Source of the DNA: a virus
Lineage: Duplodnaviria; Heunggongvirae; Uroviricota; Caudoviricetes
IMG/VR virus record: IMGVR_UViG_648276647_000006
Location: 1 to 56,868 of that record
DNA: 56,868 nucleotides
Reading direction: 5' to 3' (one strand)
Of this stretch, positions 12,487 to 19,175 are shown in pieces (the stretch's first letter is position 1; each line of letters starts with the position of its first letter). Position numbers and translations under genes: made by a program. The notes under the pieces are model-generated. The model did not search any database and had not been told where the DNA came from. It worked only from the letters and a program-made list of their open reading frames with translations.

Positions 12487-12499
12487 TTATTAGAGCAAT
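12483..12499 (-). promoter_or_regulatory. C1 operator (inverted)
   Basis: Reverse complement ATTGCTCTAATAAAAAA. Confidence 0.6.
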
Positions 12500-13996: not shown

Positions 13997-14016
13997 TAGT
14001 TACAGTGTCACTTTTA

Positions 14017-14051
14017 ATGCTGGTGGAGTGCGTCCCACCAGCATTTTTTTC
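14017..14051 (+). terminator. rho-independent terminator
   Basis: ATGCTGGTGG-AGTGCGTC-CCACCAGCAT followed by T7. Confidence 0.65.
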
Positions 14052-14069
14052 GTCCAATGAGGAGGGCAT

Positions 14070-14576
14070 TTGAGTATTTTCAATAAACACGCACACCAGG
14101 AACGTCCGTATATCGTCATAGTCGATATTGATGGAACAATATCAGAGGCAACTGAAGACAGACTGCATTTGCTTCCGCCACCAGGTAAAGGTGCATTAAC
14201 AAAGGACTGGAACGAGTTTAATCTCGCCTGTGACACCGATACTCCCATCACTCCAGTTATTGATATGGTGCGCCAGTTATTTAACGTTTACACGGTCTGG
14301 TTTGTAACCGGGCGCTGTGAGATCGCAAGGGATAAAACACGAGCTTGGCTGCGGAAGTACGTAACAAACGGGGCTGAGCCTTTGCTATCTATGCGTCCTG
14401 CCACCGATGACAGAAATGACGGCCCAGCAAAGATTGATCTCCTTAAGAAAATTGGTCTAAGTAAAATCGCGTTCGCGCTGGAAGATAAGATTGAAGTGGC
14501 GCGTGTTTTCAGGAGTCACGGCGTACTTACGTTAATGGTCAGGGAGTATGAAAACGCGCTTCTCCATCAGCAATAA
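14070..14576 (+). CDS. HAD-superfamily phosphatase-like protein
   Basis: ORF track 168 aa, TTG start after GAGGAGGG; HAD motif I VIVDIDGTI. Confidence 0.6.
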   Translation: MSIFNKHAHQERPYIVIVDIDGTISEATEDRLHLLPPPGKGALTKDWNEFNLACDTDTPITPVIDMVRQLFNVYTVWFVTGRCEIARDKTRAWLRKYVTNGAEPLLSMRPATDDRNDGPAKIDLLKKIGLSKIAFALEDKIEVARVFRSHGVLTLMVREYENALLHQQ

Positions 14577-14592
14577 TTGCTCTAATAAATCT
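14576..14592 (+). promoter_or_regulatory. C1 operator
   Basis: ATTGCTCTAATAAATCT. Confidence 0.7.
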
Positions 14593-14674
14593 TGATTTTT
14601 AAAACAGAGAAAGTGAAAATAAAAACATGCCGCAAGGCGCGGCATGTATCCAATCAATCACAGGAGCTGAAAAT

Positions 14675-14761
14675 ATGAACACGGCATTCAAAATCATTAT
14701 GGCCGCGATCTATTTCTGGCTGTTCTCTATCACTTTTGGCGGCATCGTCGCACATGGGTAA
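14675..14761 (+). CDS. small hydrophobic peptide (28 aa)
   Basis: Own translation MNTAFKIIMAAIYFWLFSITFGGIVAHG; AGGAG RBS 9 nt upstream. Confidence 0.3.
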   Translation: MNTAFKIIMAAIYFWLFSITFGGIVAHG

Positions 14762-14770
14762 GGGGGATGC

Positions 14771-15349
14771 ATGAAAGGCGAAGTGAAAGAGCGCGGCATG
14801 ATTTTTAACGATGAGATGGTCCGGGCAATTCTTGGCGGGAATAAAACACAGACTCGCAGGATTGTTGAAGAAAAATTCTATGGACGGGCAGTGGCCGCAG
14901 AGTTGCTTGCCAAGCATTGTCCATATGGTCAACCGGGCGATCGTATTTGGGTTCGCGAAACCTACCGGGTACATGGCAAAGCGACGGACGTAGCAACGCT
15001 GGTTTATCGCGCAAGCGTGCGTAACTCCTGGACAGAACAAACGCACCGGGTTCCGGTCGAGGTTTGTAATAAACCAGTATCAGAAAAGTGGACTCCATCA
15101 ATTCACATGCCGCGCTGGGCATCGCGCATTCTTCTGGAAATTACCGACGTGCGTGTGGAACGGCTACATGACATGAGCGAGGCAGATGCTAAAGCAGAAG
15201 GCGCAACTCCGGCGACGTACAAGATTACGCCACCTGAAGCTGTTTATCGCGTTGGTTTTGGTGATATCTGGCGCAGTATTTACGGGCAGGATAACTGGCT
15301 ATCTAACCCGTTGGTATGGGTAATCGAGTTTAAGCGCATTCAGGAATAA
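14771..15349 (+). CDS. ASCH/PUA-like domain protein
   Basis: ORF track 192 aa; AAGGGGG RBS; FNDEMVRAILGGNKTQTRR and GQPGDRIWVRETY resemble the ASCH signature. Confidence 0.55.
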   Translation: MKGEVKERGMIFNDEMVRAILGGNKTQTRRIVEEKFYGRAVAAELLAKHCPYGQPGDRIWVRETYRVHGKATDVATLVYRASVRNSWTEQTHRVPVEVCNKPVSEKWTPSIHMPRWASRILLEITDVRVERLHDMSEADAKAEGATPATYKITPPEAVYRVGFGDIWRSIYGQDNWLSNPLVWVIEFKRIQE

Positions 15350-15358
15350 ACCGTGAGT

Positions 15359-16231
15359 ATGCATCAAGTCGTCAGCTTTTCAGGTGGACGAACATCGGCT
15401 TATCTCGTTCATCTGATGGAAGCACGGCGAAAAGCTGGCGCTAGCGTCCATTTCATTTTTATGGATACCGGCTGTGAACATCCTCTGACGTATCGCTTTA
15501 TTCGTGAGGTTGTGAAGTTCTGGAACGTTCCGCTAACGGTGTTGCAGGTCGATATAAATCCAGAACCTGGGCAGCCAAATGGTTATACGGTATGGGAACC
15601 AAAGGATATTCAGACGCGACTGCCGGTGCTTAAACCGTTTATGGACATGGTTAAAAAGTACGGTACGCCATACATCGGCGGCGCGTTCTGTACCGACAGG
15701 CTAAAACTCACCCCTTTCACGAAATATTGCGATGACCATTTTGGGCGAGGGAACTACATCACGTGGCTGGGTATTCGTGCAGACGAACCCCGTAGGCTGA
15801 AACCGAAACCGGGCGTCCGGTATCTTGCCGAGCTGTCAGATTTTGATAAGTCGGATGTTATCCGGTGGTGGCGAAAACAACCTTTTGATTTGCAAATCCC
15901 GGAGCACCTCGGGAACTGTGTTTTTTGCATCAAAAAGTCAACGCAAAAGCTGGGGCTTGCATGTAAAGACGAACCAGGTCTGATGCGGGTTTTTAATGAA
16001 CTGGTTACAGGCAAACACGTCAGGGATGGTCATCGCAGAACAGGTAAAGACGTTATGTACCGTGGCCACCTGACGCTTGACGGGATTGCCAGAATGTATG
16101 CCGACAGTGACTACAGAAATTTGTATCAGGCGATGGTGCTGACCAAGCGGTTTGATACTGGTTCGTGTTCCGAATCATGTGAAATCTGGGGTGACCAATT
16201 GGAGTTGAAATTCGAAGAGGTAGTGGAATGA
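15359..16231 (+). CDS. pap: PAPS-reductase-family (PP-loop) protein
   Basis: ORF track 292 aa; PP-loop SFSGGRTS; P1 has a gene named pap of this family (recollection). Confidence 0.8.
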   Translation: MHQVVSFSGGRTSAYLVHLMEARRKAGASVHFIFMDTGCEHPLTYRFIREVVKFWNVPLTVLQVDINPEPGQPNGYTVWEPKDIQTRLPVLKPFMDMVKKYGTPYIGGAFCTDRLKLTPFTKYCDDHFGRGNYITWLGIRADEPRRLKPKPGVRYLAELSDFDKSDVIRWWRKQPFDLQIPEHLGNCVFCIKKSTQKLGLACKDEPGLMRVFNELVTGKHVRDGHRRTGKDVMYRGHLTLDGIARMYADSDYRNLYQAMVLTKRFDTGSCSESCEIWGDQLELKFEEVVE

Positions 16232-16431
16232 CAATCGTAAAAACCCATACCGGTACCGTGATCACCAAAGATGGCCCGAAGGTAAAAAAACTGCACCAAA
16301 CAGAGCGGATGTGGGTCGTTGGCAAAAACGAGTTTTACCACAAAGAAACTGGACGCCGCCATTTTGCAGAAAATACGCGCCGCCGACTGCTGTTAGACAC
16401 CATCAAGCCTATCGAGGTGAAGCATGTTTAA
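16228..16431 (+). CDS. hypothetical protein
   Basis: ORF track 67 aa; start overlaps the pap stop. Confidence 0.5.
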   Translation: MTIVKTHTGTVITKDGPKVKKLHQTERMWVVGKNEFYHKETGRRHFAENTRRRLLLDTIKPIEVKHV

Positions 16432-16663
16432 ACAGAACGAAAAAGCTATCGCTCAAATTGCTGATTATATCCCGCGTGCGTGCCGGGGTATGCAGTTGCA
16501 GGAAGCCAAAGCGCGCCTGGAGAAAAAAATTGCGCTCTATATTGATGACGGCTGTGATGCCGCCGTTCTTAACGAGGCGTTCGCACCAGCTCTTAACAGT
16601 CATACTCGGGAGTCTTTTTTTTCGTGCATCGAAGCGCAACTCCGCAAAGGAGGCAGCCAGTGA
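16424..16663 (+). CDS. hypothetical protein
   Basis: ORF track 79 aa; GAGGTGA RBS. Confidence 0.5.
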   Translation: MFKQNEKAIAQIADYIPRACRGMQLQEAKARLEKKIALYIDDGCDAAVLNEAFAPALNSHTRESFFSCIEAQLRKGGSQ

Positions 16664-17292
16664 GCGAAATTAATTACCAGGCACTGCGTGAGGCGGCGGA
16701 ACGTGCAATTCCAGCAATGGAACGCCTGTTAATGTTGCCAGCTGATGATGATTTGTTAAGTGAACAGGAACTTAAAGATTACGGTGTGGATATTGATGCG
16801 CTCAACGCCTTCAAATTTCTGACCGGACCAGAAACCGTGCTGGCGCTGCTGGATGAACGGGAAAGAAACCAGCAATACATAAAACGCCGCGATCAGGAGA
16901 ACGAGGATATTGCGCTAACGGTAGGGAAACTGCGTGTTGAGCTTGAGGAAGCAAAATCAAAACTCAACGAGCAACGCGAGTATTACGAAGGTGTTATCTC
17001 GGATGGGAGTAAGCGTATTGCTGAACTGGAAGCACGGGAAATAAAACCAGCCAAAGGTGAAGTTCTTGTCGTTGTTTCTGGTTTTACTGGTTGCGGAAAA
17101 AGCGCCATTGCCGGGGAAATAGAAATCGCGATGAAGGCTATTGGTGTACCGGTTAAGTGGACTAATGGCGATGCAGAAAAGCGCATGACTGGCGCTGACT
17201 GGCTGACAGCGATTGAGATGTATAAACCAACTGTGCGCATCGTGGAAGTTAATGTGCCACGCGCCGCTGGCATTCGCATCAAAGGAGAGTGA
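16660..17292 (+). CDS. P-loop NTPase-like protein with coiled-coil N-terminus
   Basis: GTG start after AGGAGG; Walker A-like GFTGCGKS. Confidence 0.55.
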   Translation: MSEINYQALREAAERAIPAMERLLMLPADDDLLSEQELKDYGVDIDALNAFKFLTGPETVLALLDERERNQQYIKRRDQENEDIALTVGKLRVELEEAKSKLNEQREYYEGVISDGSKRIAELEAREIKPAKGEVLVVVSGFTGCGKSAIAGEIEIAMKAIGVPVKWTNGDAEKRMTGADWLTAIEMYKPTVRIVEVNVPRAAGIRIKGE

Positions 17293-17293
17293 T

Positions 17294-17809
17294 ATGGCGT
17301 TAACACACCGCGAACTCTGTCAGATTGCGTACAAGTTCCTTAAGCGCAACGGGTTCAAGGTTTGTTTTCATGACCGCTTTATAGCTGTAACCAGTACCGG
17401 AGAACAGCCAGATGCTATGGGATTCAGAAATTCAGCATCATGCCTGATAGAGGCGAAATGTTCTCGTGCTGACTTGTTGGCAGATAGAAAAAAGCGTTTT
17501 CGTAAAAATCCATCTCTTGGAATGGGCGACTGGCGATTCTTTATTAGTGAGCCGGGAATTATTTCAGTTGAGGATTTACCACCTGGCTGGGGATTACTTC
17601 ACGTTGTTAACGGAAGAGTACGGAAAGTACATGGGTGGCCCAAGGGGAATTGCTGTTGGGGTAACCCTGAAGATAAACCTTTTATTGGGAACAAGCAGGT
17701 TGAATGCGATTACATGTTATCTGCATTAAGGCGCATGGAGTTGAGAGGGCACCTTAATGAAATATATGACGGTGTAATTGTTAATAAGAAAGAAGGAAAC
17801 GCGGCATGA
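17294..17809 (+). CDS. PD-(D/E)xK nuclease-like protein
   Basis: Internal ATG with AAGGAG RBS; EQPDAMGF...IEAK matches a D...(D/E)xK core. Confidence 0.5.
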   Translation: MALTHRELCQIAYKFLKRNGFKVCFHDRFIAVTSTGEQPDAMGFRNSASCLIEAKCSRADLLADRKKRFRKNPSLGMGDWRFFISEPGIISVEDLPPGWGLLHVVNGRVRKVHGWPKGNCCWGNPEDKPFIGNKQVECDYMLSALRRMELRGHLNEIYDGVIVNKKEGNAA

Positions 17810-18816
17810 TCACTATTACCAAAGAGTTCACCAAAGAGCAGTTGATTGAGCAGGCTAAGAAGAATATTGAGGTTCTTCGCGTTGCGGTGGAAAGAGTCCC
17901 GGGCGCTTCTGATGCGGCGGTTATTCACCTCAAGCTGGCCGAAATTACGCTGGCATCGCTGGAAGCCGAGCCTGTTCTGTATCAGTCCTGCACTCGCCCC
18001 ACCTGGAATAGCGGTGTTCCGTGGACGGAATGGAAAGAACGAAGTCGTGAGTGCTACGAAGACGATTTGCGCTTTACAGACACGCCTGACCATGCCGGTT
18101 GGATATACAAATGCCGAAAACTATATACCACTCCGCCAGCGCCGGTAATACAGGCTGATGTCGCGCAAGCAATTGAAAATCTCAAGCAGAAGTTAGTGGA
18201 ATGCAATCGCTATAACTACTGCGCAGATGCAGTTAAAGGCGTAGAGGATGCCTGCCGTGCTGTTAGCTATAGCCAAGCCGACAATCAACCAGCATCTGGC
18301 AACCAGGCTGCCGAATCCAATCGCGGTAATGAGTGGACTGGCAATCCTGATATTGATAACGCCATCATCATGCTCGACCGCATAGATACGCTGGAAAATT
18401 GCGATGATGACCGTATTGAGGCTGTTAAGGCTGTTTTGCGTAGACTGGCTGGCAACTATCCGGATATTCCGGATAGTTCGGTGTCAGCGCCAGCAAAGGG
18501 CGTCACCGGTGAACGTATCCGCATTAAGCCGCATGTTTATCGCGAACTGGTTAACCGTCTCCACGATACAGCGGTCAAGTGTGCTGGCACCCAGCAATTA
18601 CGAGAAAGAATTAGCCGTGTTTTGGGCGACGTTATTACGCCAGATCATCATAAACAAGCCGAGAAAAGTGACCTAGAAAGGTGTCACCTTGAGGCGGCAT
18701 TAAACATTAAGCCGGGGCATACGCTTGGCATTATCGATGCTCTGTTGGTTCATAAGATGGCCATGGCTTTATTGCCGTTGGTGGATGCTGGCGATACAAG
18801 CGAGGGTGAGGTATGA
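17806..18816 (+). CDS. hypothetical protein
   Basis: ORF track 336 aa; ATGA overlap with the upstream stop. Confidence 0.65.
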   Translation: MITITKEFTKEQLIEQAKKNIEVLRVAVERVPGASDAAVIHLKLAEITLASLEAEPVLYQSCTRPTWNSGVPWTEWKERSRECYEDDLRFTDTPDHAGWIYKCRKLYTTPPAPVIQADVAQAIENLKQKLVECNRYNYCADAVKGVEDACRAVSYSQADNQPASGNQAAESNRGNEWTGNPDIDNAIIMLDRIDTLENCDDDRIEAVKAVLRRLAGNYPDIPDSSVSAPAKGVTGERIRIKPHVYRELVNRLHDTAVKCAGTQQLRERISRVLGDVITPDHHKQAEKSDLERCHLEAALNIKPGHTLGIIDALLVHKMAMALLPLVDAGDTSEGEV

Positions 18817-19175
18817 GAGTTGCAGATCACATCAAACACCTTGAAAGAATTATCGAAAACGGTGAACTCTTAAGAGATCAGATGAGACGCACGGCAGAAG
18901 TCAGAGAGGCGATAATCCGCAGTCAGGCTGGTAAATTAAAGCAATTGTCAGAGATTAACGCGCTATACAAGAACAGACGTAACCGGGCGGCGCTGCGGCT
19001 TCAGAAAGCACGTAATGAAATTAAATTGGTGGAGGCAAAACTGAAAAAACAGATTCAGCGTTACGATCAGCAAGATGCTTTTTATGCCGCCATCAAGGCG
19101 GCTGCTAATGAAATAGGCATCTGGAAGTTGCTGGTGGAGAAAGCAAAGACGAAGTTAAATGCCAACGAAAGCTGA
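18813..19175 (+). CDS. coiled-coil protein
   Basis: ORF track 120 aa; ATGA overlap. Confidence 0.6.
   Translation: MRVADHIKHLERIIENGELLRDQMRRTAEVREAIIRSQAGKLKQLSEINALYKNRRNRAALRLQKARNEIKLVEAKLKKQIQRYDQQDAFYAAIKAAANEIGIWKLLVEKAKTKLNANES

Follow-up and report, generated by a model that had tools for sequence, protein, structure and literature searches.

The locus and its control region

The DNA analysed here is a viral sequence of 56,868 nucleotides (nt; IMG/VR record IMGVR_UViG_648276647_000006, referred to in its entirety as the window), and this study concerns a run of plus-strand genes at positions 14070-17809. A first-pass annotation had described five of these genes as a single module, lying behind a C1 operator and acting in nucleic-acid modification or anti-defence. 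We consider it likely that this stretch comprises a backbone gene, pap, and downstream of it an early operon under C1 repression, the pmgT (Op88) operon of a P1/P7-like phage-plasmid, and that the genes within the operon are mosaic cargo.

The window is itself a P1/P7-like phage-plasmid. Positions 14000-17900 share 96-98% DNA identity with the Punavirus genomes of Escherichia phage JL22 and P7 and also match hundreds of IncY-type P1-like plasmids, and the flanking gene order (pmgQ, pmgS, pap, ..., pmgV, hot, lxr, humD, phd/doc) is the order of P1, P7 and JL22. At least one sequenced plasmid, NZ_CP091040.1, carries a near-identical arrangement (81% coverage, 97.5% identity). The block from ninC to eaA shares ~94% identity with lambdoid phages (Stx and Shigella). 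The stretch studied corresponds to pap plus the operon that is named pmgT-pmgU-pmgV in P1 (operator OpmgT, formerly Op88) and the "hea" operon in P7. Its features are listed below, with protein lengths in amino acids (aa) and open reading frames abbreviated as ORFs.

14016..14045, plus strand: terminator-like hairpin plus T-run, located between pmgS and pap (11-pair stem with 6 G-C pairs, then TTTTTCGTCC)
14070..14576, plus strand: pap, predicted HAD-superfamily PNKP-type 3′-phosphatase domain, 168 aa; P1 backbone gene, upstream of the operator
14576..14592, plus strand: C1 repressor operator ATTGCTCTAATAAATCT; 16 of 17 consensus positions matched (1 mismatch), located where P1 has OpmgT/Op88 and P7 has Op(hea)
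14577..14620, plus strand: predicted sigma-70 promoters, by position P1 P2pmgT (TTGCTC ... TAAAAC) and P1pmgT (TTGATT ... GAAAAT)
14625-14647: 10-pair G+C-rich hairpin overlapping the small hydrophobic ORF, with a terminator reading on the minus strand only
14627..14761, plus strand: small hydrophobic ORF of 44 aa, though a start at ATG 14675 behind AGGAG, giving 29 aa, is more likely; gp98 in JL22
14771..15349, plus strand: 192-aa homologue of PmgT-N/upf86.8 that gives a weak ASCH-like signal; conserved first operon gene; phrog_874 at 1.5e-83
15353..16231, plus strand: NinC orthologue, PP-loop PAPS-reductase-family protein, 292 aa, possibly starting at ATG 15359
16228..16431, plus strand: small ORF, 67 aa; phrog_1226 at 2.7e-42; ATGA overlap on the ninC stop
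16424..16663, plus strand: small ORF, 79 aa; phrog_1344 at 7.5e-52; annotated in Ss-VASD and plasmid CP091040
16660..17292, plus strand: Ead/Ea22-family protein; Pfam Ead_Ea22 (PF13935) at 2e-37, 129 bits, residues 14-136
17294..17809, plus strand: P7 upf89.0 homologue, predicted PD-(D/E)xK-fold protein, 171 aa; distantly related to SPO1766
17806..18816, plus strand: EaA-like protein, 336 aa, whose last 111 residues correspond to P1 PmgU (95% identical); eaA in JL22 and Ss-VASD
18813..19175, plus strand: pmgV, conserved last operon gene; phrog_4403 at 6.6e-78; pmgV in P1 and JL22; ATGA overlap with the preceding gene

The C1 operator reported at 14576 is borne out by its 16/17 consensus matches, by its position in P1 and P7 and by the enrichment of such sites: counted at ≤3 mismatches, the window holds 13 C1-operator-like sites against 0.29 expected from shuffled sequences. 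The 13 sites are spread over 8810-45939, and a facing pair (12434-12450 on the plus strand and 12483-12499 on the minus strand) lies upstream of pmgR/pmgS, matching the P1 OpmgRa/b arrangement. The first base of the operator at 14576 is the final base of the pap stop codon. The statement that all five genes lie behind this operator does not hold for pap, which is upstream of it and itself follows the terminator-like hairpin at 14016-14045.

The operon promoters are assigned through homology to the P1 annotation, and by this assignment the predicted -35 element of P2pmgT falls within the operator. A consensus promoter scan returned a weak site alone, at 14548-14577. The operator-controlled unit, the pmgT (Op88) operon, extends over 14771-19175 and comprises eight tightly coupled genes. 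From ninC through pmgV, successive genes are linked by ATGA/GTGA overlaps or by gaps of 1-3 nt, with good Shine-Dalgarno sequences; the start-stop overlaps, along with the absence of plus-strand terminators, argue for a single predicted transcript. The five ORFs of the first-pass annotation are real, conserved genes on the plus strand, but the description of five adjacent genes had omitted the two small genes (16228-16431 and 16424-16663) and the hydrophobic ORF, and the unit runs on to 19175.

Every component of the region belongs to a described family or a catalogued PHROG, and existing records of P1, P7 and plasmids already display the operon together with its operator and its variability. 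A tRNA gene at 1218-1290 (64.7 bits) was the sole Rfam match of the window, the scan detecting no RNA family in the studied region.

The operon as a probable slot for exchangeable lambdoid genes

The interval between pap and pmgV is highly variable. Among 25 complete P1-like loci it ranges from 0.5 to 8 kilobases (kb) and takes at least 18 architectures, and across 85 P1-like loci it holds 108 cargo protein clusters, with NinC present in 8/85. The Pfam families of this cargo include 14 Ea22 variants, 8 DUF551 proteins, DUF968, N6/N4 methyltransferase, dATP/dGTP pyrophosphohydrolase, integrase, Xis and insertion sequence (IS) elements; they are the families of the lambdoid exo-xis, ea and nin regions. 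In place of ninC and the two small ORFs, P7 carries upf87.4 and upf87.6, and JL22 carries two small genes plus an adenine methyltransferase. One P1-like IMG/VR contig (L220:10204-13839) has an apparent intimin/invasin-like inverse autotransporter in the same slot; its Pfam matches (IAT_beta at 6e-109, Big_1 and Invasin_D3) were given to a 1211-aa ORF as the sole cargo ORF long enough to hold them.

P1 itself is without the whole internal block, through a natural deletion whose junction is seen in a DNA alignment (P1 L005 5489-6558). There, an out-of-frame junction between the ASCH-like gene and the middle of an eaA-like gene produces pmgT, and pmgU is the in-frame C-terminal portion of the EaA-like protein noted above. 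The recognition of pmgT and pmgU as deletion remnants is modestly new relative to the literature searched, and it disfavours their "morphogenetic" labels. The P1 genes pap, pmgT, pmgU and pmgV are non-essential by CRISPR interference (CRISPRi; PMC10695390).

The association of the same genes was also surveyed from the side of NinC, in a sample of 80 viral (IMG/VR) loci that encode a NinC homologue. Within these loci pap was found in none and an ASCH-like gene in 3 (adjacent to ninC in 2); the nuclease and the P-loop tail of Ea22 occurred in 2 loci each, and the two small ORFs were present in 7. No enrichment of HAD or ASCH proteins around NinC was detected in any of the NinC-locus surveys. With the P-loop Ea22 tail as the query, NinC lay within 3 kb in 3/80 loci and the nuclease in 16/80.

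Pap, the first operon gene, Ea22 and the upf89.0-like protein

Pap had been annotated as a HAD-like hydrolase, and this assignment is confirmed by a match to Pfam HAD_PNKP (PF25109; 7.8e-12, 46 bits against a cut-off of 27.6) and by an intact DxDGT motif (D19-I-D21-G-T23), which is accompanied in the sequence by T80, K121 and E138-D139. The protein also matches phrog_415, "polynucleotide kinase" (3.3e-57), and weakly the phosphatase domain of Pnkp1 (PDB 4xrp, E=0.0012). It has no N-terminal P-loop 5′-kinase domain of the T4 Pnkp type, and phrog_505 aligned at profile positions 156-292 only. The gene, which is annotated in P1, P7 and JL22, has the Shine-Dalgarno sequence GAGGAGG before a TTG start. 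Pap is probably an end-healing 3′-phosphatase.

The product of the first operon gene (14771..15349) is 43% identical to residues 1-239 of P1 PmgT, with the first 19 aa identical, and belongs to a very large family (42,754 representative clusters at E ≤ 0.001); a word-index homologue search gave only relatives that were at least 96% identical. Its description as an ASCH/PUA-like protein is plausible but unproven. Pfam ASCH (PF04266) matches it below threshold (14.9 bits against a gathering score of 21.2, E=0.044), and among 54 diverse homologues ASCH was the sole Pfam family matched, at E ≤ 0.01 in 8/54 and at best 0.0011. A profile search against PDB sequences found no match for this protein, and hhalign against an E. 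coli YqfB sequence gave a probability of 18% over a C-terminal stretch only.

The Walker-A protein of the first-pass annotation is an Ead/Ea22-family protein, its likely start being GTG 16660 after AAGGAGG, where the mechanical ORF begins at 16624. The Walker-A-like motif is present (GFTGCGKS), but it lies in a variant C-terminal domain of ~85 aa that gave only generic P-loop matches (E 0.02-0.06), among them SRP54 in the PDB at E=0.06. All 80 homologues retrieved with this tail were 96-100% identical, too alike to judge conservation of the motif. Ea22 proteins have variable, swapped C-terminal domains (PMC10834534).

The likely start of the following gene is ATG 17294 after AAGGAG, not 17213. 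Its product had been called PD-(D/E)xK-like, which agrees with fold-level comparison: the top Foldseek matches are nearly all PD-(D/E)xK proteins, though at E ≥ 0.013, and residues D40, E53 and K55 are invariant in 42 sequences of the family. A Pfam search with this protein gave no match. The distant relative SPO1766 (PDB 3dnx), which we take to belong to the DUF1052/MmcB-like branch of PD-(D/E)xK nucleases, shows 23% identity at a sequence-profile E of 0.2. The upf89.0-like family is confined to Enterobacterales prophages (320 proteins), and its member in the window is probably a nuclease. The Salmonella prophage proteins P0207, P0208 and P0220 combine an N-terminal Ead/Ea22 region with a following upf89.0-like domain, and because of these fusions that domain would be one of the interchangeable Ea22 C-terminal domains; in the window the gene stands alone directly 3′ of ea22. 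We found no evidence tying either Pap or the upf89.0-like protein to NinC.

For the EaA-like protein (17806..18816), a Pfam search was without a match. In the RefSeq record of P7 (NC_050152.1), the product names given to upf86.8 ("DNA primase"), upf89.0 ("minor tail protein") and hdmB ("alpha-2;3-sialyltransferase") look spurious, and the profile and fold results for the homologous window genes back none of them.

NinC is a PP-loop protein associated with DNA methyltransferases

The protein encoded at 15353..16231 aligns with lambda NinC over 285 aa with 79% identity, 92% positives and no gaps (tblastn of phage genomes). Its annotation as a PP-loop protein of the PAPS-reductase family was upheld by Pfam PAPS_reduct (PF01507; 4.3e-9, 37.1 bits against a cut-off of 22.5) and by an AlphaFold2 model (predicted local distance difference test score 88.8), for which the best Foldseek matches were CysH and APS reductase (probability 1.0), with template modelling (TM) scores of 0.35-0.5 over about 180 residues. 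In 54 NinC homologues, down to 52% identity, the PP-loop S-x-S-G-G-R-x-S, the motif D-T-G-x-E and six cysteines (C113, C126, C189-x-x-C192 and C272-x3-C276) are invariant or nearly so, the invariant residues being S8, S10, G11, G12, R13, S15, D38-T39-G40, E42, C113, C126, C189, C192 and C276. The C272/C276 pair lies in a low-confidence, probably flexible C-terminal tail of the model. Taken as a pattern, these cysteines suggest an iron-sulfur (Fe-S) or reactive-cysteine enzyme.

Comparison with defence models in PADLOC gave matches for NinC alone, to SspD (2.9e-13), BrxP (1.6e-4) and DndC (about 7e-4), in each case over the N-terminal half only; the SspD profile is covered at positions 2-121 of 277. 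NinC was rejected as a DndC equivalog, the NCBIfam model TIGR03183 scoring 16.7 bits against a cut-off of 290.4, and among 123 neighbour proteins of NinC loci there were none of the partner families DndA/D/E or SspA/B/C. It was likewise rejected as CysH: hhalign with E. coli CysH covers 63 N-terminal residues only (probability 93%), the NCBIfam CysH/APS-reductase models score 21.7 bits against 154 and 15.8 against 165, and the catalytic C-terminal ECGLH motif is not present in NinC, whose C-terminus reads SCSESCE.

The neighbours of NinC in the 80 loci are early replication, recombination and nin genes (Ea22, helix-turn-helix proteins, NinG, NinB, DnaB, YqaJ and SSB). DNA methyltransferases are the only recurrent association, with a Dam domain fused or nearby in 19/80 loci. 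NinC is fused to Dam (PF05869) in five contigs and to a D12-class methyltransferase (PF02086) in one, and a 968-aa triple fusion joins a C5-methyltransferase (PF00145), NinC and Dam (L048:6582-9488). These methyltransferase fusions suggest that the arena of NinC is DNA and restriction evasion. Besides L048, the contigs with methyltransferase-fused NinC domains are L040, L042, L044, L047, L081 and L082, and L043 encodes an 824-aa NinC-family protein with a long unannotated N-terminal extension.

A NinC homologue in a genetic determinant of escape from Dnd

Over residues 3-282, the window NinC shares 55% identity (E=7e-110) with the PAPS domain of protein p0018 from Vibrio phage 44E38.1, and lambda NinC is 59% identical to the same domain. 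According to the preprint of Piel et al., the genes p0018 and p0019 are specific to phages growing on Dnd-carrying Vibrio crassostreae, and when the two were moved into a sensitive phage it grew fully despite an intact host Dnd system (bioRxiv 10.1101/2021.05.05.442762). A 2026 paper cites this work for a phage PAPS reductase that promotes Dnd evasion (PMC13551039). The function of lambda NinC has been called "poorly understood" (PMC3224144), and CRISPRi screens showed lambda ninC to be dispensable (PMC10695390).

NinC is the one gene of the operon to which homology lends a phenotype, and on this analogy we give an anti-defence role for the protein a little short of an even chance; any particular NinC chemistry is rated much lower than the role itself. 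The anti-defence function proposed for the region in the first-pass annotation is retained for NinC alone, through its homology to p0018, and finds no support for the other genes. Two further leads were set aside. JSS1_004, reported as an anti-Dnd factor (PMC12345140), is a T7 gp0.7-like kinase rather than a PAPS reductase and is irrelevant here, and p0019, considered as a possible counterpart of the ASCH-like gene, is a DUF6475 protein with no similarity to it.

Proposed role of the operon and alternative explanations

We propose that the conserved end genes, pmgT/ASCH-like and pmgV, frame a landing pad for exchangeable lambdoid accessory genes, and that the cassette between them (ninC, two small ORFs, an ea22 variant, the PD-(D/E)xK protein and eaA) is of the lambdoid nin/exo-xis/ea type. 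By analogy with P1 Op88, the operon would be shut off in the plasmid prophage and expressed once C1 is absent, during infection or induction. On this reading the genes are independently assorting and individually dispensable cargo, not steps of a single pathway, and their most likely role would be host takeover or counter-defence, functions that the presumed timing of expression would suit. Within this set, NinC would be a probably catalytic PP-loop/cysteine enzyme, probably with an Fe-S cluster, that may blunt Dnd/Ssp-type restriction, with phage DNA or the phosphorothioation machinery of the host as its target; Pap would remove 3′-phosphates from damaged nucleic-acid ends; and the PD-(D/E)xK protein would act as a nuclease.

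Several observations weigh against this reading. In the non-P1 viral contigs L006 (7299-8879) and L007 (7305-8879), an ASCH-like gene (56-57% identical), preceded by DUF968, lies directly upstream of a 97%-identical ninC. These two contigs are the only hint of a recurring adjacency between the two genes, and the tight coupling of the eight genes in the window may reflect an interplay that co-occurrence in 80-locus samples misses. As regards NinC, the transfer in Vibrio involved two genes, and the PAPS domain there is fused to Dam, such that the PAPS domain alone may not suffice; the stand-alone NinC is without a recognisable DNA-binding domain and has no Dnd or Ssp partners in its neighbourhood. 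Few E. coli strains carry Dnd or Ssp systems, yet coliphages very commonly carry ninC, and the real target of NinC may therefore differ.

A specific form of the proposal, which we regard as unlikely, is that the NinC family, lambda NinC included, comprises autonomous single-polypeptide PP-loop/Fe-S enzymes that would mark phage DNA during replication in a sulfur- or adenylate-dependent manner, with no need of a DndD/E or SspB/C-type partner. If true, phages would have a new, minimal way of modifying the backbone or bases of DNA against Dnd, Ssp or BREX-4-type defences, and the NinC of the window would be one of thousands of copies in coliphages and P1-like plasmids.

NinC could instead be a non-catalytic decoy, a dominant-negative mimic of DndC or SspD that would sequester IscS/DndA, DndD/E, SspB/C or the restriction module. 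Such a role would account for the N-terminal match to SspD, which is its closest defence profile, and for its solitary occurrence with no partner genes; the anti-Dnd phenotype of the Vibrio homologue is also compatible with inhibition. However, strict conservation of the PP-loop and of the six cysteines down to 52% identity argues for retained catalysis, and fusions with active-looking DNA methyltransferases fit a modification enzyme better. We judge a decoy rather improbable.

A further alternative is that NinC is an auxiliary metabolic gene of sulfur assimilation, a PAPS/APS reductase that raises the supply of sulfite and cysteine during infection. This is what its PHROG label ("moron, auxiliary metabolic gene") implies, and CysH and the APS reductases are its best structural matches; moreover, among its conserved cysteines are a CxxC pair and those of a flexible, cysteine-rich C-terminal tail, a combination that we take to resemble the layout of APS reductase. 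The structural matches, however, reach low TM-scores, the alignment with CysH is limited to ~63 N-terminal residues, the NCBIfam scores are far under their cut-offs and ECGLH is missing, while three kinds of methyltransferase fusion and neighbours from replication, recombination and nin regions point to DNA and not to metabolism. A metabolic role appears improbable.

For the region as a whole, the explanation nearest to the first-pass annotation is an integrated modification module, in which a PP-loop enzyme, a P-loop protein, a phosphatase, an ASCH reader and a nuclease would form a miniature Dnd/Ssp/BREX-4-like system acting on phage DNA or RNA and telling modified from unmodified nucleic acid. 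In known phosphorothioation systems a P-loop NTPase does accompany a protein with a PAPS-reductase domain, joined in BREX type 4 by a phosphatase (PMC12914056); the tight gene coupling seen here and the adjacency in L006 and L007 are in keeping with such a module. Set against this, the proposed partners seldom accompany NinC in the 80-locus survey, in either direction of search between NinC and the P-loop tail; the "NTPase" is a ~85-aa tail on an Ea22 coiled-coil protein and not a DndD-, SspC- or BrxC-like ATPase; pap lies outside the operator-controlled unit; and ninC is missing from the same operon in P7, JL22 and P1. We consider the module very improbable, and the claim that the genes function together in nucleic-acid modification gave way to independent assortment in a hypervariable slot. 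Morphogenetic functions, which the "pmg" (putative morphogenetic) naming in P1 and certain RefSeq labels imply, find favour only in annotation labels of P1 and JL22 and are scarcely tenable, being already contradicted, as the first-pass annotation had anticipated, by the non-essential nature of the P1 counterparts and of lambda ninC, by the natural deletion of the block in P1 and by a domain content that is enzymatic or lambdoid-early and not structural.

As a "module" the region would be of little weight, being one of many shuffled versions of a dispensable P1-like accessory slot. Viewed as mosaic cargo, the pap-pmgV interval is a recombination hotspot that swaps early genes between P1-like and lambdoid phages. 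Modestly new relative to the literature searched is the link that connects the anti-Dnd PAPS-Dam protein of Vibrio phage with lambda NinC and with the many copies that Stx phages and P1-like plasmids carry under the name "PAPS reductase". The p0018 anti-Dnd determinant is the only NinC homologue with a phenotype, and it gives a concrete hypothesis that could be tested cheaply in E. coli.

Comparison with known systems

The operon of the window closely resembles the pmgT operon of P1 and the "hea" operon of P7. All three follow pmgS and pap and precede upfM, hot and lxr, and they share the C1 operator, the predicted promoters, PmgT-N/upf86.8 as the first gene and pmgV as the last. P7 also carries Ea22, upf89.0 and EaA genes, as does the window, whereas in P1 the internal block is deleted and pmgT is fused to the 3′ end of eaA.

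Lambda NinC (orf290) has the same length as its counterpart in the window and keeps all of the conserved cysteines and the PP-loop. The setting differs: in lambda the gene is flanked by ninB and ninD, within the delayed-early nin region transcribed from pR, whereas ninC of the window lies in a C1-controlled P1 operon, near Ea22 as in Stx phages. The PAPS domain of p0018 from Vibrio phage 44E38.1 is homologous to the window NinC from end to end. In the Vibrio phage, however, this domain is followed by a fused Dam domain and p0018 has p0019 as a neighbour, whereas NinC of the window ends after the PAPS domain and has no neighbour resembling p0019, and no Dam match was found in 14070-19175.

With DndC, SspD and BrxP, NinC of the window shares an N-terminal PAPS_reduct/PP-loop domain and a cysteine-rich composition. 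The PP-loop of DndC reads SGGKDS, and that of NinC in the window reads SGGRTS.

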